A stretch of DNA of 64,000 bases, taken from IMG/VR virus record IMGVR_UViG_3300030329_001736, positions 1-64,000 of that record. One strand, written 5' to 3'. The translations under genes and the position numbers were made by a program. Shown in pieces: positions 3,848 through 42,182 of the stretch. How positions within the stretch are numbered: the stretch's first letter is position 1; each line of letters begins with the position of its first letter. The notes beneath the pieces were generated by a model that saw only the letters and a program-made list of their open reading frames with translations, ran no database searches and was not told the origin of the DNA. This DNA comes from a virus.

Positions 3848-4059
3848 AGACGCCAGAAGAGCTATTAGCAGATTTACACTCAGAGGTCGCTAAAGACCTC
3901 CTCAACAGAGTTAAGAGTGGGGAAGCCTCAAGTCAGGAACTTTCTGTTGCTGTGCGATTCCTAAAGGACAACAACATTGAGGCTCAGATGACTGAAAATA
4001 GCCCATTAGCACACCTGGTGGACTCATTACCCATATTTGATGACGAAAAACTGCACTAA
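3844..4059 (+). CDS. Terminase small subunit (T7 gp18-like)
   Basis: L..LH......LL.RVKSGEA...EL.VA..FLKDNNI motif; directly upstream of TerL. Confidence 0.85.
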   Translation: MKTPEELLADLHSEVAKDLLNRVKSGEASSQELSVAVRFLKDNNIEAQMTENSPLAHLVDSLPIFDDEKLH

Positions 4060-5845
4060 AAACCCCGAAATGCCCGCTAAGGCCCCTAGGAAGCCCACGC
4101 AGAAGAATAAGGGTGTTTCTGGGGGCAGGGTAGCCAAGGCATCGAAGAAGGCTACTCAGGAACGCTCTGAGGAGTCTGTTTCAGAAGATTTCAGGATGTT
4201 TCTCTTCTTGATCTGGAAACATCTCAGTTTACCACCCCCAACTCCGGTACAGTACAACATTGCAACCTATCTACAACATGGTCCAAAGCGATCTTGCGTA
4301 CAAGCATTTCGAGGAGTCGGTAAATCGTGGATTACCTCCGCATTTACGTTATGGACTCTCTACAGAAACCCCGAGACGAAAATACTCGTTGTCAGTGCGT
4401 CTAAGGAAAGAGCGGATGCATTTTCGACGTTTACTCTCAGACTTATTTCAGAGGTGCCATTTCTCAAGCACCTAAAACCCAAAGAAGAACAGAGAAGCTC
4501 CAAGATTGCCTTTGATGTAGGACCGGCAAAAGCCGCTCATGCCCCCAGTGTCAAATCTGTGGGAATCACAGGACAGCTAACAGGCTCCCGTGGCGACCTG
4601 ATCATCGCTGATGACGTTGAAGTTCCCAATAACAGTGCAACACAGCAGATGCGAGACAAGCTCAGTGAGCAAGTCAAGGAGTTTGACGCTGTGTTAAGCC
4701 CTGGGGGACGTATAATCTACTTAGGAACCCCTCAGACTGAAGACAGCCTGTATCAGGCACTGTCTGACCGTGGGTATGACCTGAGGGTTTGGCCCGCATT
4801 AAAACCTAGTGCCAAGGAAGAGGCGCAGTATGGGAATATGCTGGCTGATTTCATAAGTGATCTGCCAATGGAACCGGGTGATCCCACCGATCCTCTCAGG
4901 TTTGACACTGAAGACCTACTGGAACGCAAGGCATCCTACGGTAAAGCTGGGTTTGCCCTACAGTTCATGTTGAATACCCAGTTATCTGATGTTGAAAGGT
5001 ATCCGCTGAAGGTCAGGGATATCCTGTTCATGGCGTGTGACAAGACACTGGCACCCATGAAGATTGGCTGGGGGCCTGATGAGGACAGGCGGCTGAATAG
5101 TCTGCCTAACACAGCCATGAATGGGGATTACATGTATGCCCCCATGCATATCGACAGGGAACATGTGTCTGAATACACAGGGTCAGTCATGGCTATTGAC
5201 CCCTCAGGCAGAGGTCAAGATGAGACAGGGTACGCTGTGGTCAAGATGCTCAATGGGTATCTGTTTGTTGTAGCCTGTGGGGGACTCAAGGGGGGCTATG
5301 ATGACCAGACGTTACAGACACTGGCTGGACTTGCTAAGAGTCACTCAGTGAATTCTGTGATTGTCGAGAGCAACTTCGGTGATGGGATGTACACCAAACT
5401 GCTGATCCCTGTGATGAACAAGATACACAGGGTGATGATTGAAGAGGTGAGGCACAGTCAGCAGAAAGAGAAGCGCATCATAGACACCATAGAGCCTGTG
5501 GTAGCCAGACATAAGCTGGTGATCGATCCCAGTGTGGTCGAAGAGGACTACAGGAGTGCCCAGAAGTACGACCAGTCTGTCAGACTCAGTAAACAACTGA
5601 TCTACCAGATGACCAGGGTTACCTATGAACGTGGAGCCCTGAGACATGACGATAGGCTTGATGCATTGTCCATGGCTGTTGGCTACTGGGTAGAACAGAT
5701 GGCTAGAGATGAATCACTGGGTATATCAGAAGAGAGAGATAAGGCTTTGCAAGCTGAACTGGATGACTTTGCTGATATGGTGAGAAACCCAATGGTGAAC
5801 AGGAAACAAAACCAGCATACAAGACCACTGGTCTGGATGAATTAA
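4037..5845 (+). CDS. terL: Terminase large subunit (T7 gp19-like); start may be 4070
   Basis: QAFRGVGKSWIT Walker A, IIADDVE Walker B, IDPSGRG and HDDRLDAL nuclease motifs. Confidence 0.97.
   Translation: MMTKNCTKNPEMPAKAPRKPTQKNKGVSGGRVAKASKKATQERSEESVSEDFRMFLFLIWKHLSLPPPTPVQYNIATYLQHGPKRSCVQAFRGVGKSWITSAFTLWTLYRNPETKILVVSASKERADAFSTFTLRLISEVPFLKHLKPKEEQRSSKIAFDVGPAKAAHAPSVKSVGITGQLTGSRGDLIIADDVEVPNNSATQQMRDKLSEQVKEFDAVLSPGGRIIYLGTPQTEDSLYQALSDRGYDLRVWPALKPSAKEEAQYGNMLADFISDLPMEPGDPTDPLRFDTEDLLERKASYGKAGFALQFMLNTQLSDVERYPLKVRDILFMACDKTLAPMKIGWGPDEDRRLNSLPNTAMNGDYMYAPMHIDREHVSEYTGSVMAIDPSGRGQDETGYAVVKMLNGYLFVVACGGLKGGYDDQTLQTLAGLAKSHSVNSVIVESNFGDGMYTKLLIPVMNKIHRVMIEEVRHSQQKEKRIIDTIEPVVARHKLVIDPSVVEEDYRSAQKYDQSVRLSKQLIYQMTRVTYERGALRHDDRLDALSMAVGYWVEQMARDESLGISEERDKALQAELDDFADMVRNPMVNRKQNQHTRPLVWMN
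4096..4160. other. Conserved DNA element shared with 60511-60574 (strong-gyrase-site-like)
   Basis: 20/27 identity in the 5' block and an exact 15-mer agaaggctactcagg at near-identical spacing. Confidence 0.45.
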
Positions 5846-5851
5846 TATGGT

Positions 5852-5864
5852 GCCATACTAGAAG
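5852..5864 (+). promoter_or_regulatory. Putative phage RNAP promoter (phiOR-like)
   Basis: GCCATACTAGAAG, intergenic just after terL; one of seven copies. Confidence 0.7.
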
Positions 5865-5869
5865 GAATG

Positions 5870-6020
5870 GGGGGTTACCTACCTGTATCCCCCCTAGGGT
5901 AACCTTAGGGTAATACAACTGTCCCCCTCCGGTTGGAACCTAAGGTTACCCCCTTCAATAGGAGTACCCTAGGGTAACCTTAGGGTAGTCAAAGGGTAGC
6001 CAAAGGGTAATCCTAGGGAA
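5870..6020. repeat. Genome-end short repeat array (SRR/SRL-like)
   Basis: ccctagggtaaccttagggta at 5892-5912 and 5967-5987; AGGGTA at 5971, 5982, 5993, 6004 and AGGGA at 6015 (11-bp period). Confidence 0.75.
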
Positions 6021-6451
6021 TGAATATCATTATTCATAACAATGAAGATAAAGACCCCTGGGTAACAGTGACCCGGTGCAGAATCCATAAGACTTGGTTG
6101 TCTGATTAACCTGTAGGGTTACATATGTACCGCTTGTATTTTCACTGAAAAATCTCAGGGGGTTGAATTAGCGCGAGCCTTCCCCGCTCCCCCCTTGGCC
6201 CCTCGCGCCGGGGTGTCTGACATTCATTCGTTAGGGGCCCCTCGGGTGCCCTCAGGGCGTCTAGACACAGCGCCCGACACAGCCCCGCCCAGCGGCCCCA
6301 CAATCCCCCCAGATTTACACATTTATTTAACATGTAGGCGAGCCTCAGGGCTCATCCTGTGGTTGATCCAAGGGGGAACCGTTGGGGTGCCCGCTGGTTG
6401 TCTATGTCTGTCCGTTTGTTTTTGTCCCCGTCATTTTTTTTATTTTCCCTA

Positions 6452-6479
6452 TTGCAACCCCTGTATAATTGTGAATAAT
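6452..6479 (+). promoter_or_regulatory. Putative host sigma70 early promoter
   Basis: TTGCAA-16 nt-AATAAT with an upstream T-tract, before the first early ORF. Confidence 0.45.
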
Positions 6480-6510
6480 GAGCATAGATACAACAAACCG
6501 GGGGCACCTA

Positions 6511-6654
6511 ATGGACGAACTAACCCTGACCGTCTGTCGCTTGACGTTTCTTTTCATCGTGGTTTCGCCGCTGGTGATCATGTTGGGCTTTACGATCCAC
6601 GATATATACCGCCGCGCCAAGGGAAAGCCGCCGTATCACAAGGGGGAATTCTAG
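6511..6654 (+). CDS. 47-aa early membrane protein (absent from ORF track)
   Basis: GGGG RBS; MDELTLTVCRLTFLFIVVSPLVIMLGFTIHDIYRRAKGKPPYHKGEF with one TM segment. Confidence 0.5.
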   Translation: MDELTLTVCRLTFLFIVVSPLVIMLGFTIHDIYRRAKGKPPYHKGEF

Positions 6655-6682
6655 GTGGAGACCGCCGCAAGCCAATAAATCC

Positions 6683-6744
6683 CCCTACTGATGAGCGGGG
6701 GTGGTCCCCCCGCGAAACAGTCCTGAAATACGGGCTGTCTAGGG
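6683..6744 (+). ncRNA. Hammerhead ribozyme, type I
   Basis: Stem I cccta/taggg, core CUGAUGA (6688-6694), 7-bp stem II gcggggg/cccccgc, GAAA (6714-6717), stem III acagucc/gggcugu, GUC cleavage triplet 6737-6739. Confidence 0.9.
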
Positions 6745-6768
6745 AAACTGAACAGAGGGAACTTAGAA

Positions 6769-6945
6769 ATGTTCGACATTGAAACCACGATGCCCGTGCC
6801 CACCAATACCAAGCCCATCGAAACCATTGACCGCGTGACTATCGACGCGCCACCGCCGCGCCACGGGGAAGGGCCTGCCGTTTTCGATTATTGTCTGGCC
6901 GCCGGTCGCGACCGCGTAGGCTTGAGGGGGGATAACTATGCGTAA
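6769..6945 (+). CDS. 58-aa early hypothetical protein
   Basis: GAGGGA RBS immediately 3' of the ribozyme; overlaps the start of the next gene. Confidence 0.5.
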   Translation: MFDIETTMPVPTNTKPIETIDRVTIDAPPPRHGEGPAVFDYCLAAGRDRVGLRGDNYA

Positions 6946-7699
6946 ATCCCTGCACGTTGTAAGCCTGTTTGATTTTACAGGGGCTGCGCTGGCCCCGTTT
7001 GCAAGCGCCGGTTTCAAGTGTTTTGCCTATGATATTCAGCATGAAGCCCGCGAGTATCCGTGGAAGCTTCCCGCCACGCGGGTAGACAATCTGGGCATTC
7101 GGTACATCCATGCTGATCTAGCCAGCCCCGATTATCTCCAAGCCATCGTGGACAGGCACAAGGGACGCACGCTCTTGTTATCTGCGTTCCCGCCTTGTAC
7201 GGACCTCGCCGCTTCGGGTGCCCGCTGGTGGAAGGCTAAGGCGGCGCGGAACCCGCACTTCCAAGAGGAAGCGGCGGCGATGGCTCGCAATGCAAGCGCG
7301 ATAGGCCGCATGCTCAATTGCCATTGGTATCTGGAAAATCCCATCGGTGCCCTGTCGCGCTTGTGGCGCAAACCTGATTACAAATTCCAGCCTTATGAGT
7401 ATTCCGGCTACATCCCTAAGGCTGATAGTATCCACCCGCTATATCCTGAGTACATCCCAGCGCGCGACCTCTACCGCAAACGCACTTGCATCTGGCATGG
7501 CGGGGGCTTTGTCGTACCGCCTAAGGAACAAGCAGGCGAACCGGTCAGCCTTGTTTATCAGCGCCGCGACCCGCGCAAGGGTGCCAACTTCTCGCCTCAG
7601 GCGGGAAAGCTTGGTGGCACCAGCCAGAAAACCAAAAACATACGCAGCGCCACGCCTAGGGGCTGGTCTAATGCCGTCTATTTGTTTAATTCCATGTAA
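6938..7699 (+). CDS. C5-cytosine DNA methyltransferase-like protein
   Basis: SLFDFTG (motif I variant), FPPCT (catalytic motif IV), ENP (motif VI). Confidence 0.8.
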   Translation: MRKSLHVVSLFDFTGAALAPFASAGFKCFAYDIQHEAREYPWKLPATRVDNLGIRYIHADLASPDYLQAIVDRHKGRTLLLSAFPPCTDLAASGARWWKAKAARNPHFQEEAAAMARNASAIGRMLNCHWYLENPIGALSRLWRKPDYKFQPYEYSGYIPKADSIHPLYPEYIPARDLYRKRTCIWHGGGFVVPPKEQAGEPVSLVYQRRDPRKGANFSPQAGKLGGTSQKTKNIRSATPRGWSNAVYLFNSM

Positions 7700-7718
7700 C
7701 TTGTAAGGGGACTACCAA

Positions 7719-8018
7719 ATGACAGATACAACACACCAGCTAGACCTTGATCTCACCCAGCGCGAAAACCAGCGCCTCACATATCCGCAACTAGAGGCGA
7801 AACTTGGGATTTTACACGGCACCATGCACAGCGCCAAGGCCCTAGGGCTTCTATACAGGTGCCAAGACTTCCAGCGGCGTTGCAAGAGCTTGGATATCAA
7901 CCAGCGCGAGCTAGGGCTGTACATGATTTCGCAATGGGTCTTGATGCGCGTGGAACTGGCGAAAACGCCGAAAGCTCTTGCGTCTACCGTAGACCGTTTG
8001 CGCCGTTTTACCTGTTAA
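7719..8018 (+). CDS. Early hypothetical protein
   Basis: Strong AAGGGGA RBS; operon position. Confidence 0.6.
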   Translation: MTDTTHQLDLDLTQRENQRLTYPQLEAKLGILHGTMHSAKALGLLYRCQDFQRRCKSLDINQRELGLYMISQWVLMRVELAKTPKALASTVDRLRRFTC

Positions 8019-8035
8019 ATTCGAGGGGATTACAA

Positions 8036-8812
8036 ATGACAACGATTAAATCTCTAAAGGCTGAACTGAAAGCCCGTGGCGTCAATTCGTTCTTTACCGC
8101 GCCGGATGCTAACCCGAAGATTGCCAAGAACATGAAAGATGGCGTGATAACGTGGGGGCTACACTTAGCGCCCGCCGATCTATCGGGTTTCAACGTGTGC
8201 GCGGCGTCCACGGCGGGGTGCCGTGAAGCTTGTCTCCATACCGCTGGCAATCCGCTGTATATGGCAGCAAAAGAAAAGGCCCGCATCGCCCGCACTAAGC
8301 TTTACTTTCAAGATCGTGAATTATTTTTACAGGGCTTGCAGCGCGAAATAGATGCGGCATTCAGGAAAGCCAAGCGGGTAAACATGGCACCTGCATTTCG
8401 GCTTAATGCAACGTCTGACATACCATGGGAACGGGTGGCGCTTGGCGGCGAAACTGTGATTGACTACATCAACGCCAACGGCGGCGAGACCTACGATTAC
8501 ACCAAGCGGGCGAACCGTAAACCGCCTGCCGGTTATCACCTTACATTCAGTCTCGCAGAGAGTAACCTAGGGGACGCCGTAGACGCCTACAGGCGCGGCC
8601 TTAATGTTGCTGTGGTATTTGACACCCCAAAGGGCAAGCCATTGCCGTCTACATGGTCCCTAGGGCCGATCAAGGGCGTCCCTGTACATGACGGAGACCT
8701 GAGCGATTATCGCCCCGCTGATCCTAGCCCTTGCGTTGTTGGGCTGCGTGCCAAGGGCGACGCCATAGGCGATCAATCTGGATTTGTGCAAGCGGCAGGG
8801 GAGGCGGTCTAA
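8036..8812 (+). CDS. GP88-family Cys-motif protein (radical-SAM-like fold suspected)
   Basis: CAASTAGCREAC, RLNATSDI, YDYTK and GD.SD.R..D....VGL.AKG motifs; start moved to the ATG with a GAGGGGA RBS. Confidence 0.75.
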   Translation: MTTIKSLKAELKARGVNSFFTAPDANPKIAKNMKDGVITWGLHLAPADLSGFNVCAASTAGCREACLHTAGNPLYMAAKEKARIARTKLYFQDRELFLQGLQREIDAAFRKAKRVNMAPAFRLNATSDIPWERVALGGETVIDYINANGGETYDYTKRANRKPPAGYHLTFSLAESNLGDAVDAYRRGLNVAVVFDTPKGKPLPSTWSLGPIKGVPVHDGDLSDYRPADPSPCVVGLRAKGDAIGDQSGFVQAAGEAV

Positions 8813-8913
8813 TGTTTAACGTAATACGGCATTCAGCCCTAGCCCTTGCCTATGCTGTGATTATTGTCGAAATCGTGGCGGCGTTCACCGTTCTAGGGTG
8901 GTTACTCGAATAA
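8812..8913 (+). CDS. 33-aa membrane peptide
   Basis: GGAGG RBS, TAATG overlap, single hydrophobic helix. Confidence 0.45.
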   Translation: MFNVIRHSALALAYAVIIVEIVAAFTVLGWLLE

Positions 8914-8914
8914 C

Positions 8915-8927
8915 GCCATACTAGAAA
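8915..8927 (+). promoter_or_regulatory. Putative phage RNAP promoter
   Basis: GCCATACTAGAAA, intergenic. Confidence 0.65.
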
Positions 8928-8940
8928 TAAACCCCAGTGT

Positions 8941-8972
8941 AACCCCTAGGTTTATCCTAGGGGTTTCTTTTT
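8941..8972 (+). terminator. Rho-independent terminator ending the early operon
   Basis: aacccctagg-tttat-cctaggggtt 10-bp stem followed by a T-tract. Confidence 0.85.
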
Positions 8973-9140
8973 GCCTGCCCTCCGCTGCCTCTTAGGGGAG
9001 GCCCAGGCAAGTCTGATAGTAGACCTTCGCGCACACCTTCCCCCTGTGTGATCATGGGCTCGGAATGAGGTGATTCGTTGCCGTTATCGGCAGTGTCCCT
9101 CCACCTTCCCTCATAACTCTCTGTTTTATATGGGATTAAT

Positions 9141-9177
9141 GTTGTAGGTTTACAACCAATAAAATATTTGATACAAT
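9141..9177 (+). promoter_or_regulatory. Sigma70 promoter of the HTH/integrase operon with overlapping palindromic operator
   Basis: TTTACA (9149)-17 nt-TACAAT (9172) with extended TG; palindrome GTTGTA-ggtt-TACAAC 9141-9156. Confidence 0.65.
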
Positions 9178-9222
9178 CAGGTTAGAGTCAGGGGTTGTAA
9201 AAATTTACTGAGAGATGCCACA

Positions 9223-9582
9223 ATGTGTGGTCACACAATTTCAGGCGCTAAACTAGCGTACCTACAGAAGATGCGGGCTGTCACGCGATACATGCGTGAG
9301 CTTGATGGGTCTATAAGCGCGTATCAATTAGAGGCGTTCCTGATCGTCGCTGCTGCCGGACCTGACGGCATGTCGATGCGAGACATTGAGAGTCGTATGC
9401 GGATTGGCAATGCCACATTGTCGCGGGTCATGGCAAATTGGTCGAAGTGGAAGAAGCCAGATGTCCCCGGAATGGACATGATCGAAATCAATATTGATCC
9501 AAGGGACCGCCGCTTCCGCATCGCCACCTTGACGCCCAAGGGGCTCGCAGTGGCTGAGAAAATCGCTGCAATGATGGAGTAG
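9223..9582 (+). CDS. MarR-like winged-helix transcriptional regulator (candidate repressor)
   Basis: HTH region plus DPRDRRFRIATLTPKG wing; upstream of the integrase. Confidence 0.85.
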   Translation: MCGHTISGAKLAYLQKMRAVTRYMRELDGSISAYQLEAFLIVAAAGPDGMSMRDIESRMRIGNATLSRVMANWSKWKKPDVPGMDMIEINIDPRDRRFRIATLTPKGLAVAEKIAAMME

Positions 9583-9585
9583 TGC

Positions 9586-10716
9586 ATGGCACGACAGAGA
9601 GGGAAAGCGTGGTACGGAGTTGTCCGCGTACCAGGCGCGAAAGTTCCGCTACGGAAAAGCTTTGGGTCATCTAAAGATTCCGCTGAAGCGTGGGAAAACG
9701 CCTGTAAACGGGCAATCGCTGACGGCTTGCCAATCCCTGATCCAAACGTGATGAAGGGCGACGGCAGCGTTGGCGAGTTTTTCACCGCTGCTTATGATTA
9801 TCTTTGGGCAAACAAGAAAGGCGCACAAAAAAAGTGGTACGCCGTCCGGCAACAGATCAGGTTTTGGGGTCCAAACCTTCCGGTCTCAGCTATCGACTAC
9901 AACGCGGTGGTCAGGTTCACCACTCACTGGCTAGAGACTGATCAGCCGTCTACGGTCAATCAGAAACTCAGTGATTTGAAGATGATTTTGACACATGCCG
10001 TTGATTGCGGGCACCTCCAGAAGGTTCCTAAAATTAAAAAGCTTCGGCAGAGCCAAGGTCGCCTACGTTTTCTCACCGATCTTGAACGCGCCCAGTTGCT
10101 GCAAGGGTTCCGGCATCTTGGGTTTGAAAACGAATACTGGTTGACGCTCTTTTTGCTTGAGCAAGGAAACCGCATAACTGAGGCTGTTGTGAGGAAGCAC
10201 GGGGATAGCCGCCGGATCGACATGAATACCCCTCCGATTGAGTGGGCCGATGTCTCTACGCCTATAGGCACCGCGCCGAGGGTACAGATTACCCATGAAG
10301 ATGGGAGCGTGACGGATGAGCCAGCGGTCACGTTTTGGAAAACCAAGAATGGAAGCTTCCGGACAATACCGCTGACACCCTTGGCTTGTCAGGCGTTGGA
10401 ATACACCCGCCAGCAAGGCTGGGAGCGACCATTCTCCGAGATCACTTATGAGGGGTATTGGAAATCATTCAAACGAGTGCAGGAGTTTTTGGGGCACGCA
10501 GATGACAAGGAGTATGTGCCGCATATTCTTCGACACACCTGTGCTTCTCAATTTGCCATCAAGGGCATGGACATGCGCCGGATAATGGCTTGGATGGGGC
10601 ACGCATCCATGCAGACAACCCTGCGCTACGCCAAGTTGGCTCCAACTGATTTGTTTAGCATGGTGCCGTCAGCGACACCTGTACAACAACAGCAACAACT
10701 GAGGGTGATTGAATAG
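9586..10716 (+). CDS. int: Tyrosine integrase
   Basis: Complete R-K-HxxR-H-Y set: GNRITE, KTKN, HILRH, MGH, LRY. Confidence 0.93.
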   Translation: MARQRGKAWYGVVRVPGAKVPLRKSFGSSKDSAEAWENACKRAIADGLPIPDPNVMKGDGSVGEFFTAAYDYLWANKKGAQKKWYAVRQQIRFWGPNLPVSAIDYNAVVRFTTHWLETDQPSTVNQKLSDLKMILTHAVDCGHLQKVPKIKKLRQSQGRLRFLTDLERAQLLQGFRHLGFENEYWLTLFLLEQGNRITEAVVRKHGDSRRIDMNTPPIEWADVSTPIGTAPRVQITHEDGSVTDEPAVTFWKTKNGSFRTIPLTPLACQALEYTRQQGWERPFSEITYEGYWKSFKRVQEFLGHADDKEYVPHILRHTCASQFAIKGMDMRRIMAWMGHASMQTTLRYAKLAPTDLFSMVPSATPVQQQQQLRVIE

Positions 10717-10717
10717 C

Positions 10718-11107
10718 ATGAGTTTTAAATCCTACTTGGTGGAACTGAAAAACAAAGAAGACGTTGAGTATCTAGACAGCTATCTGGGCGCACCGGCATT
10801 GGACGGCGTTGTTTTCCTTAATCATGTCTATCGGGCTGACGAGAAGGTGCCGGGTTACTCTACACACACTCTGGTAGCAGCACTGACAGCAGACAGGGCG
10901 GACCTTCCCGCGTCGATGGTGGATGAGGCGGGACTTGGACCAAGACCCCTGAACATTGAGAGGCTGGATAATCTGCCAGATCACCTCAAGATAAAAGAGG
11001 AACACGGTTTTAGCGTTAAGGGGTGGTCAGTGCCTGAGTGGTCAGACGCTACTTGGGCAACCGAAGCCACACGGTATCTTATGACTGTGGTTTATGGCGC
11101 ACGGTAG
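10718..11107 (+). CDS. Hypothetical protein
   Basis: GAGGG RBS; follows the integrase stop. Confidence 0.6.
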   Translation: MSFKSYLVELKNKEDVEYLDSYLGAPALDGVVFLNHVYRADEKVPGYSTHTLVAALTADRADLPASMVDEAGLGPRPLNIERLDNLPDHLKIKEEHGFSVKGWSVPEWSDATWATEATRYLMTVVYGAR

Positions 11108-11240
11108 TGTGTTTACGCTGTGTCTAATACATACACTTGTGCTTATCAGGTGTAGCTAAGTGGCTGGTTTGAAACACAAATTCCGAAATTACACACTGGC
11201 GAATTCTGTACCCGATCCATGTAGGTGAGCAATACTTGTT

Positions 11241-11282
11241 AAGAAAGGGACGTAGGGCATTGTTTCTACGCCCTTTTCCTTT
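11241..11282 (+). terminator. Terminator-like hairpin upstream of RNAP
   Basis: aaaggg-a-cgtag...ctacg-cccttt followed by pyrimidines. Confidence 0.5.
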
Positions 11283-11346
11283 GGTCTAATCCCTGTAATT
11301 CAACAACTATTATGTGTTTACAGGGCACAGCAAAATAGGGGTGAAA

Positions 11347-13836
11347 ATGGCTGAGAACAACGCGGTTAATATTTACCATGAGCAACGAGCCCTCGAAGAA
11401 TCCATGCGGTCTGAGACGATCCGGCGTTACCACAGGCTTCACCATAAAGCGCGGCAGCGCGGCGATTATGCCGCAACCCACACAGGTCGCGCTGTGCTGC
11501 ATCACGCTATCGATGCTTTTGAAATTGCGATTGATAACTTTAAGTCTGATAGCAATTCGGGAAAACCCGGCAAGCGGCACACCGCCGCTAAAATGCTAGA
11601 CACAGTTGATACTCCCACCGTTGCTTATCTGTTCACGCGGGCAATTCTCAATTTTGTACCGATCTCGACAAAAGAGGGGGCTACTGCCGCACTATCTGCT
11701 GTGGCAATCCGAGGCTGTACCTTGATCCACGACGAGATGCGGATACGCTTTTTCGCTGAGAACCACTTCAAGCTTGCCCGCAAGATGTTGCAGGATTTTG
11801 ACGCCCGTGATCTGCCTCGCCGCCGCCGGAAGGAGATGCTCCAGCGCAAATTCTCGCAGATGCGGATGGAATGGGCGGTGTGGTCGAAGCGCGAGATGGT
11901 CAGCCTAGGTCGCGTGCTTGTTGAGCTTTTCGGAAACGCAACCGGCATGACACACATTAGCCAGGTTTTCGAGAACGGGAAGAAGCGGACAATAGTACAG
12001 CCTACTGCTGAGATGCTGACAAAAATCGAGGAGCGGATCAAAGCTAACGAAGACATATTCACTGTCTTCTTGCCCATGATCACCAAGCCCAAGCCGTGGC
12101 AGAACGGTAAGCTATTTGGGGGCGGATATTTCACAGACAATGTGACAGCTTACCCACTGGTCAAAGGGATCAAGCGGCAATTCCTTGAAGAGATGAATAA
12201 CATGGACTTGTCCGAAGTTCTCCGCGCCGTCAACGCCATCCAAGAGGTGCCGTTTCGCATCAGTGCCGTCATGCCGGACCTGTTGGAGCATGTCTTCTCT
12301 CTAAACAGAGAGCTTGCGGGTCTCCCCCTCGCTGACCAAGAACCTATCCCTGACGCACCAGCGGGTGCTGATGTTGACGGGGAGATAAAAAATTCCTACC
12401 GGCGGGAATGCTACCAAGTTCACGATAAAAACCGCCGCCGGATTTCCAAGCGTTTGATGGTGGCGCGCGTTATCCATCTCGCCAAGCGTTTTGAAAAAAA
12501 TCCTGAGCTTTATTTCCCCGTCCAGATGTGCAGTCGCGGGCGGCTCTATGATGTATCTACGTTCTTAAATCGGCAGGGGCCAGATTTCGTAAAAGCACAG
12601 CTTGAATTCGCGCAGGGAAAGCCCGTTACCACACCTGAGCAAGCAGCATGGCTTGCCGTTATCGGCGCAAATCACTATGGCAAGGACAAGCTGCCGTTAC
12701 AGGAGCGTGCTGATTGGGTGACCGAAAATGAACATTGGATTTTTGAGATTGCCGCCGATCCTTTCAACGACCTTAGATGGACTGACGCGGACGAGCCATT
12801 CCAGTTCGTGCGCTGGTGCATGGAATGGTCGAACTTCAGGCGTGAGGGCTACGGGTACGTGTCTCATCTCCCGTGCAACGTCGATGCTACGTGTAGCGGA
12901 TTACAGGTCTTCAGCGCCGCACTAAGAGACCCTGAGGGTGCCCGCTGGACTAACCTTACCGCACGCCCTGACCGACAAGACATCTACGTGCGTGTCGCGG
13001 AACTCGCTACTGCCAAATTTGAAGCAGAGACAGACCCTGAAAAACTAGACCTTGCCCGTGCCGCTCTGAAATTCGGAATCGGCCGCACTGAGTGCAAGCG
13101 CCCGTGCCTTGTTATACCGTATTCTGGGACGTTCCACGCGGTTATGAAGTACGTGCGTGAGGCAATTCATAAGCGGACCCAGAAAGGGGAAACGCACGCA
13201 TTCATGGAGAACGATTCCAAGTTTATCGCCTATATCTCATCGAAAATATGGGATTCGATACATGAATCAATCCCCGCTGCGCGTGAGTGCATGAAATGGA
13301 TGCAGGCAGCATCACGCCTTGTCTCCAAGAGTGATACACCTATACCTTTAGTTTGGTTTACGCCAGATGGTTTCCCTGTCCAGCAAGCTAGATACGAGCA
13401 GAAGCACGTTCGCGTCTCGACGTTCCTAGACGGAGTGATCTATCGGCTGTCGCTGTTCGAGGACACGCCGAAGCTAGACGCGAAGAAAATGGCATCATCC
13501 ATCGCCCCAAATTGGGTGCATTCCTTAGACGGCTCAATACTGCGCGGCGCAATAAACCTGGCGCTGGATCAAGAAGAAGACTTCGGGCGAGGGCCGGTTT
13601 ACTTCAACACCATACATGACTCATTCGGCACGCACTGTGCTGATCTGCCTGATTTTCTGGAGTACTGTATCAAACCCTCGTTCATACAGATTTTTGATGA
13701 GGGTGACCCGCTTGCTGATTTTGAAAATGAGGTGGCGAAAATAATTAACCAAGATGGGGTCGTGCTGCCACCGCCGCCGGATCGCGGAGACTTCGATGTT
13801 CGCGAGGTCAGGCAGAATGATTTCTTTTTCAGTTAA
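11347..13836 (+). CDS. Single-subunit DNA-dependent RNA polymerase (T7 gp1-like)
   Basis: DATCSGLQ, RxxxKxxxxxxxY, IHDSF catalytic motifs; C-terminal FFFS. Confidence 0.97.
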   Translation: MAENNAVNIYHEQRALEESMRSETIRRYHRLHHKARQRGDYAATHTGRAVLHHAIDAFEIAIDNFKSDSNSGKPGKRHTAAKMLDTVDTPTVAYLFTRAILNFVPISTKEGATAALSAVAIRGCTLIHDEMRIRFFAENHFKLARKMLQDFDARDLPRRRRKEMLQRKFSQMRMEWAVWSKREMVSLGRVLVELFGNATGMTHISQVFENGKKRTIVQPTAEMLTKIEERIKANEDIFTVFLPMITKPKPWQNGKLFGGGYFTDNVTAYPLVKGIKRQFLEEMNNMDLSEVLRAVNAIQEVPFRISAVMPDLLEHVFSLNRELAGLPLADQEPIPDAPAGADVDGEIKNSYRRECYQVHDKNRRRISKRLMVARVIHLAKRFEKNPELYFPVQMCSRGRLYDVSTFLNRQGPDFVKAQLEFAQGKPVTTPEQAAWLAVIGANHYGKDKLPLQERADWVTENEHWIFEIAADPFNDLRWTDADEPFQFVRWCMEWSNFRREGYGYVSHLPCNVDATCSGLQVFSAALRDPEGARWTNLTARPDRQDIYVRVAELATAKFEAETDPEKLDLARAALKFGIGRTECKRPCLVIPYSGTFHAVMKYVREAIHKRTQKGETHAFMENDSKFIAYISSKIWDSIHESIPAARECMKWMQAASRLVSKSDTPIPLVWFTPDGFPVQQARYEQKHVRVSTFLDGVIYRLSLFEDTPKLDAKKMASSIAPNWVHSLDGSILRGAINLALDQEEDFGRGPVYFNTIHDSFGTHCADLPDFLEYCIKPSFIQIFDEGDPLADFENEVAKIINQDGVVLPPPPDRGDFDVREVRQNDFFFS

Positions 13837-13864
13837 ACCCTGTAAATTGTAAGGGGATACGGGA

Positions 13865-14011
13865 ATGAAAATGAATATAGCCATACTAGAAATAAAAGAA
13901 TTTTTAAACCAATCAGAGGAGGGCCAGACCCCCATGGATCAAGACTTGGACGACTACGAGTTCCAGCAGAGGCTGGCGGAATTTGGGGAGGATTTCGTTA
14001 TCGATGACTGA
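13865..14011 (+). CDS. Small acidic protein (48 aa, or 25 aa from ATG 13934)
   Basis: Two RBS-supported ATGs in one frame; absent from ORF track. Confidence 0.45.
   Translation: MKMNIAILEIKEFLNQSEEGQTPMDQDLDDYEFQQRLAEFGEDFVIDD
13880..13892 (+). promoter_or_regulatory. Putative phage RNAP promoter (phi1.1-like)
   Basis: GCCATACTAGAAA just after the RNAP gene. Confidence 0.7.
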
Positions 14012-14282
14012 TGATGACAACGACGAAATCGACTATCCGGGAAACGTGGTGCCGTTGTTTAGGGATTTAGATAACGATCCTGATGACGAAACAAGTCCAC
14101 TTAACACCGCGCTTTATGCAGGTCCAACTGGCGTATTCATCCAGCAGGAGTCTAGCAGTCTTACCGAAAATGACAACGACTGCGTTGCCTTGACTTGGCA
14201 ACAGACTCAAATGCTGGTGACCAGCCTGATTGGACTTTTGGCCCACAGAATAAATGGAGAATTCAATGGCACACTCCACTAA
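14004..14282 (+). CDS. Acidic hypothetical protein
   Basis: GGAGG RBS, ATG at 14004; D/E-rich. Confidence 0.55.
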   Translation: MTDDDNDEIDYPGNVVPLFRDLDNDPDDETSPLNTALYAGPTGVFIQQESSSLTENDNDCVALTWQQTQMLVTSLIGLLAHRINGEFNGTLH

Positions 14283-14877
14283 ATCCCCGCGCTTTTCCAC
14301 TCCAGTGGGAGAGGCGGTCTATCCATATCTGCACGGAGATGGAGATACCAAATACCACGATCTAGGCACGTATAAGGCTGATCTCCGGGTGTCCAAAGAA
14401 GAAGCCGCGCCTCTCCAAAAGAAAATTTCAAAGCTTTATCAGACCCACGTTGGCGATCCTGTGCCCACAGAGAATTTCCTGTGGTCCGAAGAGACTGACG
14501 AGGCCGGTGATCCCACCGGAAATGTGGTCTTCAAGCTCCGCGTTAAAAACGTGCAGCTACGTGACGGCTCGGTCTGGTCTCGCCGCCCAAAGCTTTTTGA
14601 CACTAGCGCACCTCCTAAGCCTATCGACGTACAGCCGTGGGGCGGCACGAAGATGATCGTCGCATTCGACGCCTACGCCTACAGCAAGCCGCGAAAAGGT
14701 CTGAAGCTACAGCCTGTCGCTATTCAGATTGTCGATCTAGTGGAGGGTGAAGAAGTTAGTGACGCTGAGAAATTTGGATTTGGAGAAATGGAGTCAGGTT
14801 TCAAACAAGATGCCACAGAGGAAGAGTTCCCGTTCGACACCCAAGAAGAAGAAGACGAAGAAAACGCAGACTTCTAA
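14266..14877 (+). CDS. ssDNA-binding protein (gp2.5-like)
   Basis: TP.G.A.YP.L...DTK motif; acidic tail ending in Phe. Confidence 0.9.
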   Translation: MAHSTKSPRFSTPVGEAVYPYLHGDGDTKYHDLGTYKADLRVSKEEAAPLQKKISKLYQTHVGDPVPTENFLWSEETDEAGDPTGNVVFKLRVKNVQLRDGSVWSRRPKLFDTSAPPKPIDVQPWGGTKMIVAFDAYAYSKPRKGLKLQPVAIQIVDLVEGEEVSDAEKFGFGEMESGFKQDATEEEFPFDTQEEEDEENADF

Positions 14878-15693: not shown

Positions 15694-17310
15694 ATGTCTG
15701 AGGAGCCGCAGAGTTTCGTAACCAAGCAACCGTGCAAGCTGTGCGGTTCTAAAGACAATGTTGGAGTCTGGAGTGATGGGCACACGTACTGCTTCGGGTG
15801 TAAAGCGTACACCCCGCCGCCGAAATCTGATGGCGACGAAGCTGACATCCTCCCTTTTCCACCAGAGGAAAATCCCATCGAAAAAGAGCTATTCGCGCAA
15901 GGGCAAGCGGAAGCAATCCCTTCCCGAAGACTGACTGAGGCTACCTGTAAACACTGGAAATACCAGCTAGGCATACACAACGGGGAGCCCTGTCAGATTG
16001 CTAACTACATTGTAGATGGCAAAGTGGTGGCTCAAAAAATTAGGAAAAAAAATAAGAAGATATTCACTAAAGGAAATATCCGAAAAGCTGGCTTGTATGG
16101 TCAGCACCTTTGGTCAAAAGGAAAGATGATAGTTGTGACCGAAGGGGAACTGGATGCGTTGTCGGTGTCCCAAGCACAGAATAATAAATGGCCGGTTGTG
16201 AGCGTCAGCACAGGCAGTTCCGGTGCCGCTGGTGTCATTACTCGTAACCTTGATTACCTGTTAAAATTTCAAACCATTGTGCTGATGTTTGACACTGATG
16301 ATGCCGGTGAAGCAGCGGTTGCTGAGTGTGCCCCGTTGTTTCCGCCGGGACGCTGTAAGGTAGCCAGGCTTCCTCTCAATGATGCATCTGAGATGCTTCA
16401 GGCAAGCAGAGGCAAGGAGATCATAGACGCTATATGGCAAGCTAAAGAGTATCGACCAGATGGTATTGTTTCTGGACCTGAGCTTTGGGACGAGTTCATC
16501 CGAAACGACGATGCAGAAAGTGTGCCTTATCCTTGGGAAGGTCTCAATGAAAAGACACGGGGCCTGAGAAAACGAGAGCTTACTGTTTTCACAGCCGGAT
16601 CAGGAATTGGCAAGAGTGCAATCGTTAAAGAAATCGCACACCATCTTCTGACCCAAGGAGAAACTGTTGGGCTTATCTGTCTTGAAGAAAGTGTTAGACA
16701 CACCCTCAGGTCGCTGGTTGGTATTGAAATCAACGAGAGGCTTAACCTTAACTTTGAAGATATTCCAGAGAGTGTCTTACGAGATGGGTTTGATCGTGTT
16801 GTGTCTACCAATCGGTTATACCTGTATGATCATTTTGGTTCCCTTGGCAGCGACAATCTTCTCGAAAGAGTACAGTATTTCGCAGCAATGGGCTGTTCCT
16901 TTTGTGTGCTTGATCATCTCAGTATTGTTGTATCTGACAACATGGATAGTGAGGCTGGGTCGGAGAGAATCTTGATTGATTCAATTATGACGCGGCTACG
17001 CTCCTTGGTTGAACAGACAGGCATGGGGCTGATTCTTGTGTCTCACTTGAAGCGCCCTGATGGTAAGCCCCATGAGGAAGGCGGACAGACCTCTCTGGCG
17101 CAGCTTAGGGGCTCAGGTGCTATTGGACACCTAGCTGATATTGTCTGTGGCTGTGAGCGCAACCAGCAGGACTCTGATACCGCACACCAGACTGTTATCA
17201 GAGTGCTGAAGAACCGCTTCAGCGGTGAAACAGGCGTTGCCACAAAACTTCAATTTGACCGAGATACTGGAAGGCTAAATGAGGTTATGGCAGATGCAGA
17301 AGACTTCTGA
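15694..17310 (+). CDS. Primase-helicase (gp4-like)
   Basis: Cys4 zinc finger, TEGELD TOPRIM motif, GSGIGKS, LDHLSI, LRGSG. Confidence 0.97.
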   Translation: MSEEPQSFVTKQPCKLCGSKDNVGVWSDGHTYCFGCKAYTPPPKSDGDEADILPFPPEENPIEKELFAQGQAEAIPSRRLTEATCKHWKYQLGIHNGEPCQIANYIVDGKVVAQKIRKKNKKIFTKGNIRKAGLYGQHLWSKGKMIVVTEGELDALSVSQAQNNKWPVVSVSTGSSGAAGVITRNLDYLLKFQTIVLMFDTDDAGEAAVAECAPLFPPGRCKVARLPLNDASEMLQASRGKEIIDAIWQAKEYRPDGIVSGPELWDEFIRNDDAESVPYPWEGLNEKTRGLRKRELTVFTAGSGIGKSAIVKEIAHHLLTQGETVGLICLEESVRHTLRSLVGIEINERLNLNFEDIPESVLRDGFDRVVSTNRLYLYDHFGSLGSDNLLERVQYFAAMGCSFCVLDHLSIVVSDNMDSEAGSERILIDSIMTRLRSLVEQTGMGLILVSHLKRPDGKPHEEGGQTSLAQLRGSGAIGHLADIVCGCERNQQDSDTAHQTVIRVLKNRFSGETGVATKLQFDRDTGRLNEVMADAEDF

Positions 17311-17635
17311 CGACTGCCTTTTTGAGCGGGCAGAGAAACTAGCCATACTAGCAGTAGACGATCCGAAGCTCATCCCAGAATATGAATCTGTGATGGCAGA
17401 AATTTCAAAACTAGAAGGAGGGTGGAAAGTGAAAACCGGGCAATCTCAAAATGTGAAAATTCTTAAACACCTACAGGCTGGCAAGACGATCAGCCCTCTT
17501 GAAGCCATGGGCGTCTACGGTGTCTACAGGCTTGCTGCACGTATCTATGAGCTACGTGTATGTGGGTGGAATATTACAAAGCAAATTAAATATGATGGGC
17601 AAGGACGCACTTACGCTGAATATTCCTTAGCCTAA
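17279..17635 (+). CDS. Winged-helix domain protein
   Basis: ILKHL..G.TISPLEA...YG..RLAARI.ELR motif; start uncertain. Confidence 0.7.
   Translation: MRLWQMQKTSDDCLFERAEKLAILAVDDPKLIPEYESVMAEISKLEGGWKVKTGQSQNVKILKHLQAGKTISPLEAMGVYGVYRLAARIYELRVCGWNITKQIKYDGQGRTYAEYSLA
17342..17354 (+). promoter_or_regulatory. Putative phage RNAP promoter (variant)
   Basis: GCCATACTAGCAG within a CDS, upstream of DNA polymerase. Confidence 0.45.
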
Positions 17636-23466: not shown

Positions 23467-25104
23467 ATGTATGGTAATGTCTCTTGTGCTGCCCGATATG
23501 AGAAGTTAGCGACTGAAAGAGAAACCTTCCTTAGTAGGGGGCGAGAGTGTGCAAAGCTTACAATACCGGCATTGCTTCCTGATGCTGGGCATTCCTCATC
23601 TTCAATACTACACACTCCCTACCAAGGTATCGGGGCACGGGGAGTCAATAACCTAGCGTCCAAACTACTGTTGAGCCTTCTCCCGCCAAACACTCCATTC
23701 TTTCGGTTTGTGCTGGATGATTTTACAGCTACGGAGTTGGCTCAACAGCCTGGGGCTAGGGCGCAGATAGAAGAAGCACTGAATAAAATAGAGCGGTCTA
23801 TTCAGGCCGAAATTGAAAGTCAAAACCTAAGATCAATTATATTTGAAGCTCTGAAGCAATTGATCGTTGTTGGTAATGTTCTTGTCTATCTACCAAAAGA
23901 TGAAGGCGCGCGGGTATTCGATCTTCGCCGGTATGTTGTACAGCGTGACCCCATGGGTACTCCCTTAAATATCATCATTAAGGAAAGCGTATCTCCTGAG
24001 GTTCTGGACGATAAAGTCAGGGAAGCTGTACTCCAGAATATGCAAGACACAGACAACAGTAAGACCAGCACAGACAAGTCTATAGATGTTTACACCGCAA
24101 TGTACAGAGACGGAAAGCGGTGGAGATTACACCAAGAGATAAATGCCACGGTAGTTCCCGGCTCTGAAGGTACTTGGCCTATCGATAAGTCCCCCATGCT
24201 CCCCCTTCGGTGGGAGAGGATTGACTCTGAAGACTACGGTCGATCCTATGTAGAGCAATACAAAGGGGATATGATTTCTCTAGAAGGAATCTCTAAAGCC
24301 ATACTAGAAGCCACAGCGGCAAGCGCCAAAGTGGTGTTCATGGTTAACCCCAATGGTACTACCCGTGCCCGTGATATCGCTGATGCACCAAACGGTGCGA
24401 TAGTTAGCGGGAATGCTAGTGAGGTCACTGTCCTCCAAGCAGAAAAATACAATGACATGAGGGTAGCCCGTGAAACCGCTCAGGGGATTGAGCAACGCAT
24501 GGCGTTTGCTTTCCTGATGAACACAGCGGTTCAGCGCGACGGGGAAAGAGTCACTGCTGAAGAAATAAGGCGCATGTCCCAAGAATTGGATGACGCACTT
24601 GGCGGCACTTTCAGCTTAATGTCAGAAGAATTCCAGTTACCACTGGTGACTAGGATAATGGACAGGATGACAAAACAAAGGCGACTGCCAGCGTTGCCTA
24701 AGGGCGTTGTGAAGCCTGCGATTGTCACTGGCCTTGAAGCCTTAGGCAGAGGTCACGATCTCAATAAGCTAGACATGTTCTTCCAAGGTCTAGCCCAGTT
24801 ACCCCCTGAGGTTCTGGCTAACTACCTCAATGTTGGTGACTACATTAAGCGAAGGGGAACATCACTAGGCATTGATATGGACGGCTTGGTGAAATCTGAG
24901 GAACAAATTCAACAAGAACAGATGGCAGCGCAACAGGCGCAGCAACAACAAATGCAACAACAGGGCGCGATGGACTTGGCTAATAAAGCTGTAGGAAGTG
25001 GGACCGGCCCTGCAATCAAAGCCGCTGCTGACATAGGGCAGAGCATGGACCCTGAAATGGCCCAGCAGATGGCTCAACAGATTCAAGAGGCGACAGGACA
25101 ATAA
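23467..25104 (+). CDS. Head-to-tail connector (portal, gp8-like)
   Basis: PYQGIGARGVNNLASKL, EDYGRS, ERVTAEEIR, TGLEALGRG. Confidence 0.97.
   Translation: MYGNVSCAARYEKLATERETFLSRGRECAKLTIPALLPDAGHSSSSILHTPYQGIGARGVNNLASKLLLSLLPPNTPFFRFVLDDFTATELAQQPGARAQIEEALNKIERSIQAEIESQNLRSIIFEALKQLIVVGNVLVYLPKDEGARVFDLRRYVVQRDPMGTPLNIIIKESVSPEVLDDKVREAVLQNMQDTDNSKTSTDKSIDVYTAMYRDGKRWRLHQEINATVVPGSEGTWPIDKSPMLPLRWERIDSEDYGRSYVEQYKGDMISLEGISKAILEATAASAKVVFMVNPNGTTRARDIADAPNGAIVSGNASEVTVLQAEKYNDMRVARETAQGIEQRMAFAFLMNTAVQRDGERVTAEEIRRMSQELDDALGGTFSLMSEEFQLPLVTRIMDRMTKQRRLPALPKGVVKPAIVTGLEALGRGHDLNKLDMFFQGLAQLPPEVLANYLNVGDYIKRRGTSLGIDMDGLVKSEEQIQQEQMAAQQAQQQQMQQQGAMDLANKAVGSGTGPAIKAAADIGQSMDPEMAQQMAQQIQEATGQ
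24298..24310 (+). promoter_or_regulatory. Putative phage RNAP promoter inside the portal gene
   Basis: Exact GCCATACTAGAAG (encodes AILE, so chance occurrence is possible). Confidence 0.5.
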
Positions 25105-41000: not shown

Positions 41001-42182
41001 CTTATCGTTAATTCGACGAACAGCAGTGGTGCCAAAATTGTCTTTGAAGACAACGGTGTGACGAGAGGTTATATCGGCGGCGCGTCTAGCATGCCAGTAA
41101 CATTTTACAACTCTAGTGCCACATTGCTTGGCGGCTTCGACACTAACGGCAGATTTGGAATTGGTACTTCGACGCCAACATCTCCTCTAACTGCCCACGG
41201 ATATACTAGTGGTGTTGGTGTTATCTACGGTAACGCTGGTGCAGCATCACAGCACTTAATAACACTAACAGACGGTGTTGCGACCAACTTTTCTATCGTC
41301 ACTAGTGGTACAGTTCTTACTCTTGGGTCAGATGCTGGAAGCAATCAAACGGCCATAAAATCTTCGGGGGTCGAGGCAATACGGATCGATTCCTCGCAGC
41401 GGGTCGGGATTGGTACTTCGACGCCAGATAGCAATCATAAATTAGAAGTGTACAGCACAGGTACTACCGAAGTAGCAATCCGAAGCGGAAACAGTTCTGA
41501 GGCAATCATTAATTTTGGAGATGTCGCTAGTCGTTTACGAGGTCGAATAGCGTATAACAACAGCAGTGAATACCTAGCTTTTTGGGCTAATGCTGGTGAA
41601 AAGATGCGAATTGATTCATCTGGTAACTTAATCGTAAAACCAGCTAGTTCAAGTCAGACTATCAGCGTTGAAGCGTCGGGCGGCGGCGCAAAAATTGAAA
41701 TGCAAGCTGATGGTGGTACACTCACAACAGTAGGCAGCACGAACAATGTGCCGACTGCTATTCAAGCTAATAGCAGTGAAGCTGTGAGGGTTTTAACGGA
41801 TGGAAAAGTTGGAATTGGCACAACCTCACCTTCAGCAAAACTTGAGGTAAACGGAACAGTATTGGCGTCTACTGACACTGATACAAGTAACACTGGAAGT
41901 GTGACGCTAGACTTTTCTGCTAATCAAAACTTTGTCCTGACTCTCACAGGTAATGTTACACTAGCCAACCCATCCACAGAACAAGTTGGTCAGGCTGGCG
42001 TGATGGTCTTTATTCAAGACGGAACGGGGTCCAGAACCCTGAGTCTCGGATCGGACTACGAGACGGCTGAAGGGGCTGGCATTACGCTTAGCACCGCTGC
42101 TAATGCGGTTGATATTGTTCCGTATTTTGTTAAGGCTTCTGGCTCGATTCAACTCGGCGCACCACAACTGGCGTTTAGTTAA
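38055..42182 (+). CDS. Long tail fibre with T7 gp17-type N-terminal anchor
   Basis: F.IPFSYI...R.TP....V.F.....L...DLN..Q..Y.AQE anchor; many RI.S.G.VGIGT repeats; C-terminal QDGTGSRTL domain. Confidence 0.9.
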   Translation: MANASHIIQASSVDGTTNTFNIPFSYISEDHLAFYVDNVLTTDSSSLYTATVLTGGTTVQIVKTSDSSNPNNVTIKLERNTPISTASVVFSNSSTLKASDLNTSNNQWLYAAQEAADDAAEAIRLDAAGVYDANSTKITNVTDPTAAQDAATKNYVDTAGDSKVAQAAASATSAANSATAAGQYAGTQNVDTFNGTGSQTAFTLSASPATENNTLVTISGVVQHKSSYSLSGNTLTFSSPPAAGTGNIEVVHLSLLSIANLDEDLSSTSSAHDSIPSAKAVKSYVDTQVDTVDTLAEVLANGNGTGGNDIAVGANDDITLVDGANIKWGTGGDGLGIYHNGSNSYITEIGNGTGNLFVLATDLTLGDKGNQHHYAHFVSGGEAKLFYDNGLSFETTSGGGKVYGDLQITGGDIELGSSNDTTISRASAGVVTIEGQTVRTGTVGISDGGTGATTAAAAATALGVGAGSNVTFHGLTTTGNASIDGAVTVNNSGADADFRVETSGNANMLFVDGGTNRVGIGTGSPNQLLAVNGSDGATNMMLQSGGTYRLGFYNDSSQQRLSTYGSPTTALTFAIQESEKMRVSANGKIAIGGQTADGPLHVFNGSAGSVTAATGAETIVAEAGGHGGVSILTPQTHTGYLTFGSPTASTRGFVSYEHNNDAMAIQVAGGEAMRINSSRNATFAGNEIKVGDNNAAGGNYDSVLHLLGDSSSGFKLSTNSGNSAFNIEREYYGWQGGLTMKRDTGNIGIGCSDPGAELEIAGDYQPLIVNSTNSSIPKIVLEDNGSARGYLGAGSGHPLVVSASNGSNKYFFSDLNGHSYFQIAASSTAGSGAGGAYIKATGSAASGPPQIAGIDLSMTDGTDGSESGIIAFHTTNSGTSSEKVRITSSGLVGLGVAAPTEELHIKASAPTIRLEDSDNNLSGYINGDNGNVLIQSYNANRDIIFGENAAGGEIMRVTGLGSVGIGTSAPGAELEIAGDYQPLIVNSTNSSGAKIVFEDNGVTRGYIGGASSMPVTFYNSSATLLGGFDTNGRFGIGTSTPTSPLTAHGYTSGVGVIYGNAGAASQHLITLTDGVATNFSIVTSGTVLTLGSDAGSNQTAIKSSGVEAIRIDSSQRVGIGTSTPDSNHKLEVYSTGTTEVAIRSGNSSEAIINFGDVASRLRGRIAYNNSSEYLAFWANAGEKMRIDSSGNLIVKPASSSQTISVEASGGGAKIEMQADGGTLTTVGSTNNVPTAIQANSSEAVRVLTDGKVGIGTTSPSAKLEVNGTVLASTDTDTSNTGSVTLDFSANQNFVLTLTGNVTLANPSTEQVGQAGVMVFIQDGTGSRTLSLGSDYETAEGAGITLSTAANAVDIVPYFVKASGSIQLGAPQLAFS
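40326..40999 (+). repeat. Internal duplication in the fibre gene
   Basis: Exact 26-mer cttgaaattgctggggattatcaacc at 40326 and 40974, within a roughly 45-aa duplicated module. Confidence 0.85.

Follow-up and report, generated by a model that had tools for sequence, protein, structure and literature searches.

Does a T7-like phage carry a self-cutting RNA between two of its early genes, and what would such an RNA do there? The early transcript of phage T7 is processed by host RNase III at sites R0.3 to R1.3. For the locus studied here, the preliminary description had proposed that a hammerhead ribozyme takes over this processing. We analysed a window of 64,000 nucleotides, by which we mean the whole stretch of DNA under study (positions 1 to 64,000 of the marine IMG/VR record IMGVR_UViG_3300030329_001736, which has 100,092 nt in all). 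Judged from its sequence and predicted fold, the segment 6683-6744, which lies between a pair of early genes, very probably represents a true hammerhead RNA that cuts itself.

The first ~41.3 kb of the record form a T7-like genome, and all genes from 6478 to ~44 kb lie on the + strand. The regions that surround the element are the following.

4037-5845: T7-type terminase
5846-6477: repeat-rich non-coding end region
6478-6654, + strand: upstream ORF of 58 aa with one hydrophobic segment (a small membrane-type protein), stop codon TAG at 6652-6654; no Pfam or PHROG family
6769-6945, + strand: downstream ORF of 58 aa, overlapping the start of the methyltransferase gene; no known family
6938-7699, + strand: DNA methyltransferase (phrog_757, E 2e-61)
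7859-8812, + strand: GP88-family protein, the last gene ahead of the first promoter-like repeat
9223-9582: MarR-like regulator
9586-10716: integrase
11314-13836: single-subunit RNA polymerase

The hammerhead occupies most of the 114-nt gap (6655-6768) between the two small ORFs, on the coding strand. The upstream ORF has an alternative start at ATG 6512, which is preceded by a GGGGG run, and the methyltransferase has 931 homologues. The single-subunit RNA polymerase, the T7-type terminase and the nearest cultured relatives, which are Autographiviridae roseophages, confirm the earlier assignment to a T7-like phage. The polymerase shares 41% identity with its counterparts in Roseobacter phages CRP-804, CRP-118 and CRP-403, and these phages also have the MarR-integrase-polymerase gene order in common with the record.

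A repeated motif with the core GCCATACTAGAAATAAA was found at 8908-8934, 13873-13899 and 17335-17361, with a shorter match at 24294-24309. Copies occupy the intergenic gaps that follow the GP88 gene, the RNA polymerase gene and the ORF at 15694-17310, and none lies upstream of the hammerhead. We regard these repeats as candidate phage-polymerase promoters on the basis of their sequence. The element thus belongs to the gene block furthest to the left and precedes the first promoter-like motif at 8908, in agreement with the early position that had been claimed for it. Since all genes are on the + strand and the first GCCATACTAGAAATAAA repeat appears only at 8908, we infer that the block 6478-8812 is most likely an early unit transcribed by the host polymerase. 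A metatranscriptome run (X10) gave a single 184-nt contig at 6456-6638, which lies upstream of the ribozyme, and none over it; such contigs show neither ends nor strand, and the library may have contained DNA.

Several other features of the record were observed. Four CCCTAGGGTAACCTTAGGGTA-like repeats form an array at 5892-6020, within the 630 nt of non-coding DNA that separate the terminase gene from the first early ORF, and this stretch is probably a genome-end or concatemer-junction region. A 42-nt direct repeat (71% identical) ending in TGTAAGGGGA occurs at 7670-7711 and 13816-13857, where the methyltransferase and RNA polymerase genes end. Positions 1-144 and 41307-41450 encode the same 48-aa tail-fibre module (77% identical) and bracket the complete ~41.3-kb T7-like genome, and the G+C content drops from ~0.46-0.50 to ~0.39 over the remaining ~59 kb of the record. 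The 100-kb record therefore looks like two joined phages, either a chimeric assembly or a cointegrate.

Direct reading of the sequence and our own descriptor scan identified 6683-6744 (+ strand) as a complete type I hammerhead with a flawless core and with stems I, II and III of 5, 7 and 7 bp. Moreover, the MFE fold of the isolated element (6675-6775) was exactly the hammerhead three-way junction. The earlier claim of a perfect core with three stems was borne out by all three approaches, and its coordinates for the predicted cleavage after C6739 and for the 29-nt leader before ATG 6769 agreed with our reading. The parts of the element and the evidence for each are as follows.

6683-6687, + strand: 5′ strand of stem I, CCCUA (sequence, fold, descriptor scan)
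6688-6694, + strand: conserved core C3-A9, CUGAUGA (sequence, descriptor scan, covariance model)
6695-6713, + strand: stem II hairpin of seven G-C pairs (6695-6701 with 6707-6713), loop UGGUC at 6702-6706 (sequence, fold, descriptor scan)
6714-6717, + strand: conserved core G12 A13 A14 A15.1, GAAA (sequence, descriptor scan)
6717-6738, + strand: stem III hairpin of 7 bp (6717-6723 with 6732-6738), with the A15.1-U16.1 closing pair, one U-G pair and an 8-nt loop at 6724-6731 (sequence, fold, descriptor scan)
6739, + strand: C17, with predicted cleavage 3′ of this base (sequence reading)
6740-6744, + strand: 3′ strand of stem I, UAGGG, the start of the predicted 3′ product at U6740 (sequence, fold, descriptor scan)
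6745-6768, + strand: remainder of the 29-nt leader, with a Shine-Dalgarno site GAGGG at 6755-6759, ahead of ATG at 6769 (sequence reading)

For accepting a hammerhead, Perreault et al. 2011 (PMC3088659) demand the core consensus C3 U4 G5 A6 N7 G8 A9, G12 A13 A14, A15.1, U16.1 and H17, no mispair at 10.1-11.1, 1.1-2.1 or 15.1-16.1, and three helices free of multiple mispairs or bulges, with no bulged short stems. We found the core as CUGAUGA at 6688-6694, GAAA at 6714-6717, U6738 and C6739. The core-adjacent positions G6695-C6713, U6740-A6687 and A6717-U6738 were all paired, and the three helices consisted of 5, 7 and 7 contiguous pairs.

Fast natural hammerheads normally require stems I and II to be in contact (PMC3088659). 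A pseudoknot serves in ~40% of the known hammerheads, and many others have no recognised contact (PMC3088659). No stem I-stem II tertiary contact was demonstrable in the 6683-6744 element and its flanks. Loop II (UGGUC) can pair with GACCG at 6660-6664, but the same was possible in 62% of shuffled flanks; a pseudoknot between loop II and the 5′ flank was rejected, as it stood at chance level both in this element and across the set of similar hammerheads described below. It had also been suggested that UCC at 6680-6682 extends stem I onto GGA at 6758-6760. This extension fails: the GGA bases lie 14 nt from the end of stem I, and UCC cannot lengthen the stem onto them because they are not adjacent to the helix.

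An Rfam search, which the preliminary description had named as a check, returned no match at the gathering score over the whole window, and no hammerhead family reached its threshold. The best permissive match of the element was to RF03152 (RAGATH-1 hammerhead), with 23 bits against a cut-off of 56.3. The two have a 5-bp stem I, the core, stem III and an A-rich 5′ linker in common, but in the Rfam consensus stem II is a single pair capped by a 7-nt loop and a 5′ hairpin is conserved, whereas the element here has a 7-bp stem II and no matching 5′ hairpin. Membership in RAGATH-1 was rejected on the score of 23 bits, the non-canonical pairs in the 5′ hairpin columns and the 7-bp stem II. Within clan CL00010 (RF00163, RF00008, RF02275, RF02276 and RF02277), the best result was a permuted misalignment to the type II model RF02276, with 16 bits against 37. 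Permissive Rfam scans of 6600-6850 and 5800-14500 gave only sub-threshold matches and no second ribozyme. We then consider how such scores are to be read: among seven loci with clearly real phage hammerheads, five scored below threshold (24.8-41.4 bits) and two gave no match. The Rfam miss of 6683-6744 carries little weight because clearly real phage hammerheads of the same design are also missed.

These loci come from a wider set. We searched IMG/VR and JGI metagenomes with patterns whose fixed letters were limited to the core and, in stems I and III, the bases next to it, and obtained 14 matches, ten in IMG/VR and four in JGI metagenome stretches (loci L007-L016 and L097-L100), which represent 11 distinct elements in unrelated phage contigs. 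In every match the three stems were complementary beyond the fixed letters, and the element was intergenic and directly 3′ of a stop codon. These elements share with ours the order of stop codon, hammerhead, short leader with a ribosome site and start codon, an open stem I (5-10 bp among them), identical core-flanking bases and scores below the Rfam thresholds. They differ in being A+U-rich, in their stems II of 3-5 bp and in showing no sequence homology outside the core. Ten distinct elements were measured: nine are predicted to cut 15-37 nt ahead of the next AUG and one at 60 nt, compared with 29 nt here. A covariance model built from nine of them, with the 6683-6744 element excluded, gave a single match at 6678-6747 (35.6 bits, E ~1.2e-6), a value that is partly circular because the nine members were retrieved by a pattern derived from the same motif, although this circularity touches the conserved columns and not the stems. 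A T7-type RNA polymerase gene was seen in none of the three records checked (of five), in a search whose control also gave no signal.

Scanning for all three permuted types with the descriptor revealed no strong motif in the 100,092-nt record other than the element at 6683-6744; the next-best candidates had stems of 3-5 bp and lay inside coding sequence. We then asked what chance would provide. In 40 Mb of random sequence with the dinucleotide composition of the record, 29 motifs combined a perfect core with 7 or more stem pairs, and in no case did the pairs exceed 12, versus 19 in the real element. Extrapolating from the observed pairing probability, we arrive at a chance expectation of ~1e-6 to 5e-5 per 100-kb record, and at ~0.2 to 8 chance motifs of equal quality across the ~250,000 windows surveyed, before an intergenic position on the sense strand is demanded. 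A chance origin of the motif is thus unlikely here, though not negligible over the whole survey.

The element was not found in any of 108 related sources, namely 85 viral and 20 bacterial methyltransferase-homologue loci and three cultured roseophages. The viral loci were taken from IMG/VR, five at first and then 80, and the viral and bacterial methyltransferase homologues were 34-56% identical. Neither the descriptor nor the covariance model found a hammerhead in the complete genomes of CRP-804, CRP-118 and CRP-403, and Rfam gave no match on the first five viral and 14 bacterial methyltransferase loci. Searches of IMG/VR with the two small flanking ORFs found no relatives, a pattern with stem II fixed had no match in IMG/VR, and blastn of 6000-9000 against GenBank phages had none. 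The closest known relative of the methyltransferase (P0001) is 90% identical and is encoded on an ENA contig of 5,027 nt. Since no hammerhead occurs in the relatives examined, the element is, as far as these sequences indicate, a lineage-specific acquisition, which agrees with what is known of phage hammerheads, whose distribution is patchy. A further consequence of this absence is that the comparative support comes from a single haplotype.

This haplotype was found in X4, a marine DNA run that belongs to another study than does the probable source sample of the record. The run contained two alleles of 6691-6825, at depths of 52 and 20, and a single shared contig over 6200-6720, where the alleles are identical. 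The minor allele carries 13 base differences and four indels, all within 6721-6795. In its stem III, the deletion of U6721, which forms the wobble pair with G6734, is accompanied by a change of U6724 to C, so that the stem again has 7 bp, now all Watson-Crick. Three remaining bases of loop III are changed and one is inserted, and the loop still has 8 nt. C17 (6739) is changed to A, which the NUH rule allows at hammerhead position 17. None of the 14 stem positions that fall in the variable patch is altered, and GAGGG is likewise kept. By our calculation, zero changes in 14 stem positions have p ~0.03 at the patch's own substitution rate of ~0.22 per base. The second haplotype is modest but real evidence of selection for the hammerhead fold, as read from the sequence of one allele that possibly reflects a single recombination patch. 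Across the X4 population, the alleles differ only in two sharply bounded patches, 6721-6795 (13 substitutions in 75 nt) and 7372-7432 (13 in 61 nt), and are otherwise identical, a pattern that suggests mosaic recombination between co-occurring strains.

The fold of the isolated element changes when upstream sequence is included, and one further feature is needed here.

6641-6647, + strand: AGGGGGA, within the final codons of the upstream ORF; by prediction it pairs with UCCCCCU at 6680-6686 and thus competes with stem I

The helix between 6641-6647 and 6680-6686 has 7 bp and a predicted pair probability of 0.92 in every context that includes 6641. In longer contexts, the hammerhead fold lay 3.5-7.9 kcal/mol above the MFE and the pair probability of stem I fell to ~0.001. 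Cleavage could therefore be slow at cellular Mg2+. The competition predicted here (3.5 kcal/mol) was the largest among 11 hammerheads compared, the ten others having their hammerhead fold 0-2.8 kcal/mol above the MFE. When the upstream flank was shuffled with its dinucleotides preserved, 18% of the shuffled flanks competed at least as strongly as the native one. The competing helix as a designed switch was rejected, being indistinguishable from chance at this rate.

These observations bear on how the element should be read. One alternative is a real hammerhead fold that is slow or largely inactive in the native transcript, a minimal form without tertiary contact that is kinetically trapped by the competing helix and serves as a structured spacer or end-cap between cistrons, or persists as a decaying relic of an acquired element. 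Its stem I is open and only 5 bp long, no significant partner of loop II was found, fast natural hammerheads normally need stem I and stem II to touch (PMC3088659), no relative examined has the element, and the energetic penalty and low stem I probability with upstream sequence point the same way. The core is flawless, however, and in the second haplotype the core and stems are kept, with an allowed H17, amid surrounding bases that diverge by ~20%. The ten measured short-stem phage hammerheads likewise show no obvious tertiary contact and have their hammerhead fold 0-2.8 kcal/mol above the MFE, the competing helix is matched by nearly a fifth of the shuffled flanks, and ribosomes finishing the upstream ORF would melt it. 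We consider this alternative unlikely. The same helix could instead be regulatory: AGGGGGA at 6641-6647 would lock the 5′ strand of stem I, and cleavage of the RNA would take place only if ribosomes translate the upstream ORF as far as its stop at 6652-6654. If true, the methyltransferase message with its 5′-OH would be released only while the first gene is being read by ribosomes. The stability of the 7-bp helix in every context that includes 6641, the position of the G-run inside coding sequence and within the footprint of a terminating ribosome, and the rank of this competition as the strongest of the 11 fit such gating. The shuffled flanks speak against it, as does the richness of the region in promiscuously pairing G-runs and C-runs, and the haplotypes, being identical over 6200-6720, offer no comparative test of it. 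Gating of this kind appears very unlikely to us.

The least probable of the readings weighed is a chance hammerhead consensus in an intergenic spacer rich in G-runs and C-runs, without ribozyme function. The number of equally good motifs that the extrapolation allows over the whole survey, the failure to reach Rfam thresholds and the lack of conservation in the relatives examined would be compatible with it. On the other side stand the very low expectation for a single record, the location of the motif, which lies on the coding strand within a gap of 114 nt and is as far from a start codon as other phage hammerheads are, and the second haplotype, which keeps the motif through structure-preserving changes.

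The explanation that we prefer, with a probability of about 0.75, is a cis-acting type I hammerhead in the leftmost early operon of a temperate marine roseophage-type T7-like phage that would self-process its transcript. It is based on the motif itself and its low chance expectation, on where the motif lies, on its resemblance to other phage hammerheads and on the fact that the second haplotype preserves it. In this model, the leftmost operon is presumably transcribed by the host polymerase, and the rightward transcript would fold into the three-way junction and cut itself after C6739. The message of the upstream small ORF would be left with a 2′,3′-cyclic phosphate behind two stable hairpins (stems II and III), and the downstream message, which encodes the 58-aa ORF, the DNA methyltransferase and the GP88 protein, would begin with a 5′-OH and the 29-nt leader carrying the Shine-Dalgarno site. 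The methyltransferase would be the first recognisable gene on the message released by cleavage. The likely effect is that the stability and expression of the two messages become uncoupled without a host nuclease. Transcription, cleavage and any effect on mRNA stability or translation are the parts of this explanation that we infer.

The preliminary description had further held that self-processing frees the ribosome-binding site. Self-processing of the early transcript is a reading already proposed for phage hammerheads (PMC3088659) and is retained here. The freeing of the site is not: the predicted unpaired probability of the Shine-Dalgarno site (6755-6760) was 0.54-0.57 in uncleaved contexts versus 0.52 in the cleaved 3′ product, and we rejected unmasking because the predicted accessibility is unchanged by cleavage.

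As a functional analogy, the proposed job is that of the host RNase III sites in T7 early mRNA. In both cases the cut would be intercistronic, in an early operon transcribed by the host and just ahead of an anti-restriction-type gene, and a hairpin is left at the 3′ end of the upstream message, as predicted for the element here. The agent differs, being a host enzyme in T7 and predicted self-cleavage of the RNA here, and so do the ends, which are 5′-phosphate and 3′-OH after RNase III, whereas 5′-OH and 2′,3′-cyclic phosphate are expected here. We rejected the element as a T7-type RNase III site, since, apart from the hammerhead junction, the gap 6655-6768 contains just short hairpins and no long irregular hairpin with an internal loop.

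The closest precedents are prophage hammerheads. Hammerheads between phage genes, including beside marR and integrase, were described in 2011 (Perreault et al. 2011, PMC3088659). In that work, arrays from Clostridium scindens, Azorhizobium and Agrobacterium were cleaved in vitro, and the Agrobacterium array, which adjoins ardA, marR and integrase genes, was also cleaved in E. coli; the proposed role was the cutting of long phage transcripts into gene-length messages (PMC3088659). The prophage elements of Agrobacterium tumefaciens and Azorhizobium caulinodans (PMC3088659) resemble ours in the catalytic core, the three-stem junction and the intergenic site in a phage polycistronic unit. The neighbourhood is also alike, with an anti-restriction-type gene followed here by the MarR-like regulator (9223-9582) and the integrase (9586-10716). 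Unlike the clustered prophage elements, the hammerhead here is a single copy, and it belongs to type I: its stem I is short and open, its stem II is long (7 bp), and no pseudoknot or loop-loop contact was demonstrable. Moreover, the neighbour is ardA there and a methyltransferase here, and cleavage, which was shown there, is predicted here.

The element is no new kind of element or mechanism, as phage hammerheads beside marR and integrase have been known since 2011. It carries a practical lesson, in that the short-stem type I design escapes Rfam: such phage hammerheads fall below every Rfam threshold and are therefore overlooked by routine annotation. It also adds one clean example to the long-standing question of what bacterial and phage hammerheads do. 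Its place is well defined, as it separates genes one and two of the operon that a T7-like phage expresses first, a point at which T7 depends on host RNase III, and the analogy with T7 can be tested directly through message stability and translation.
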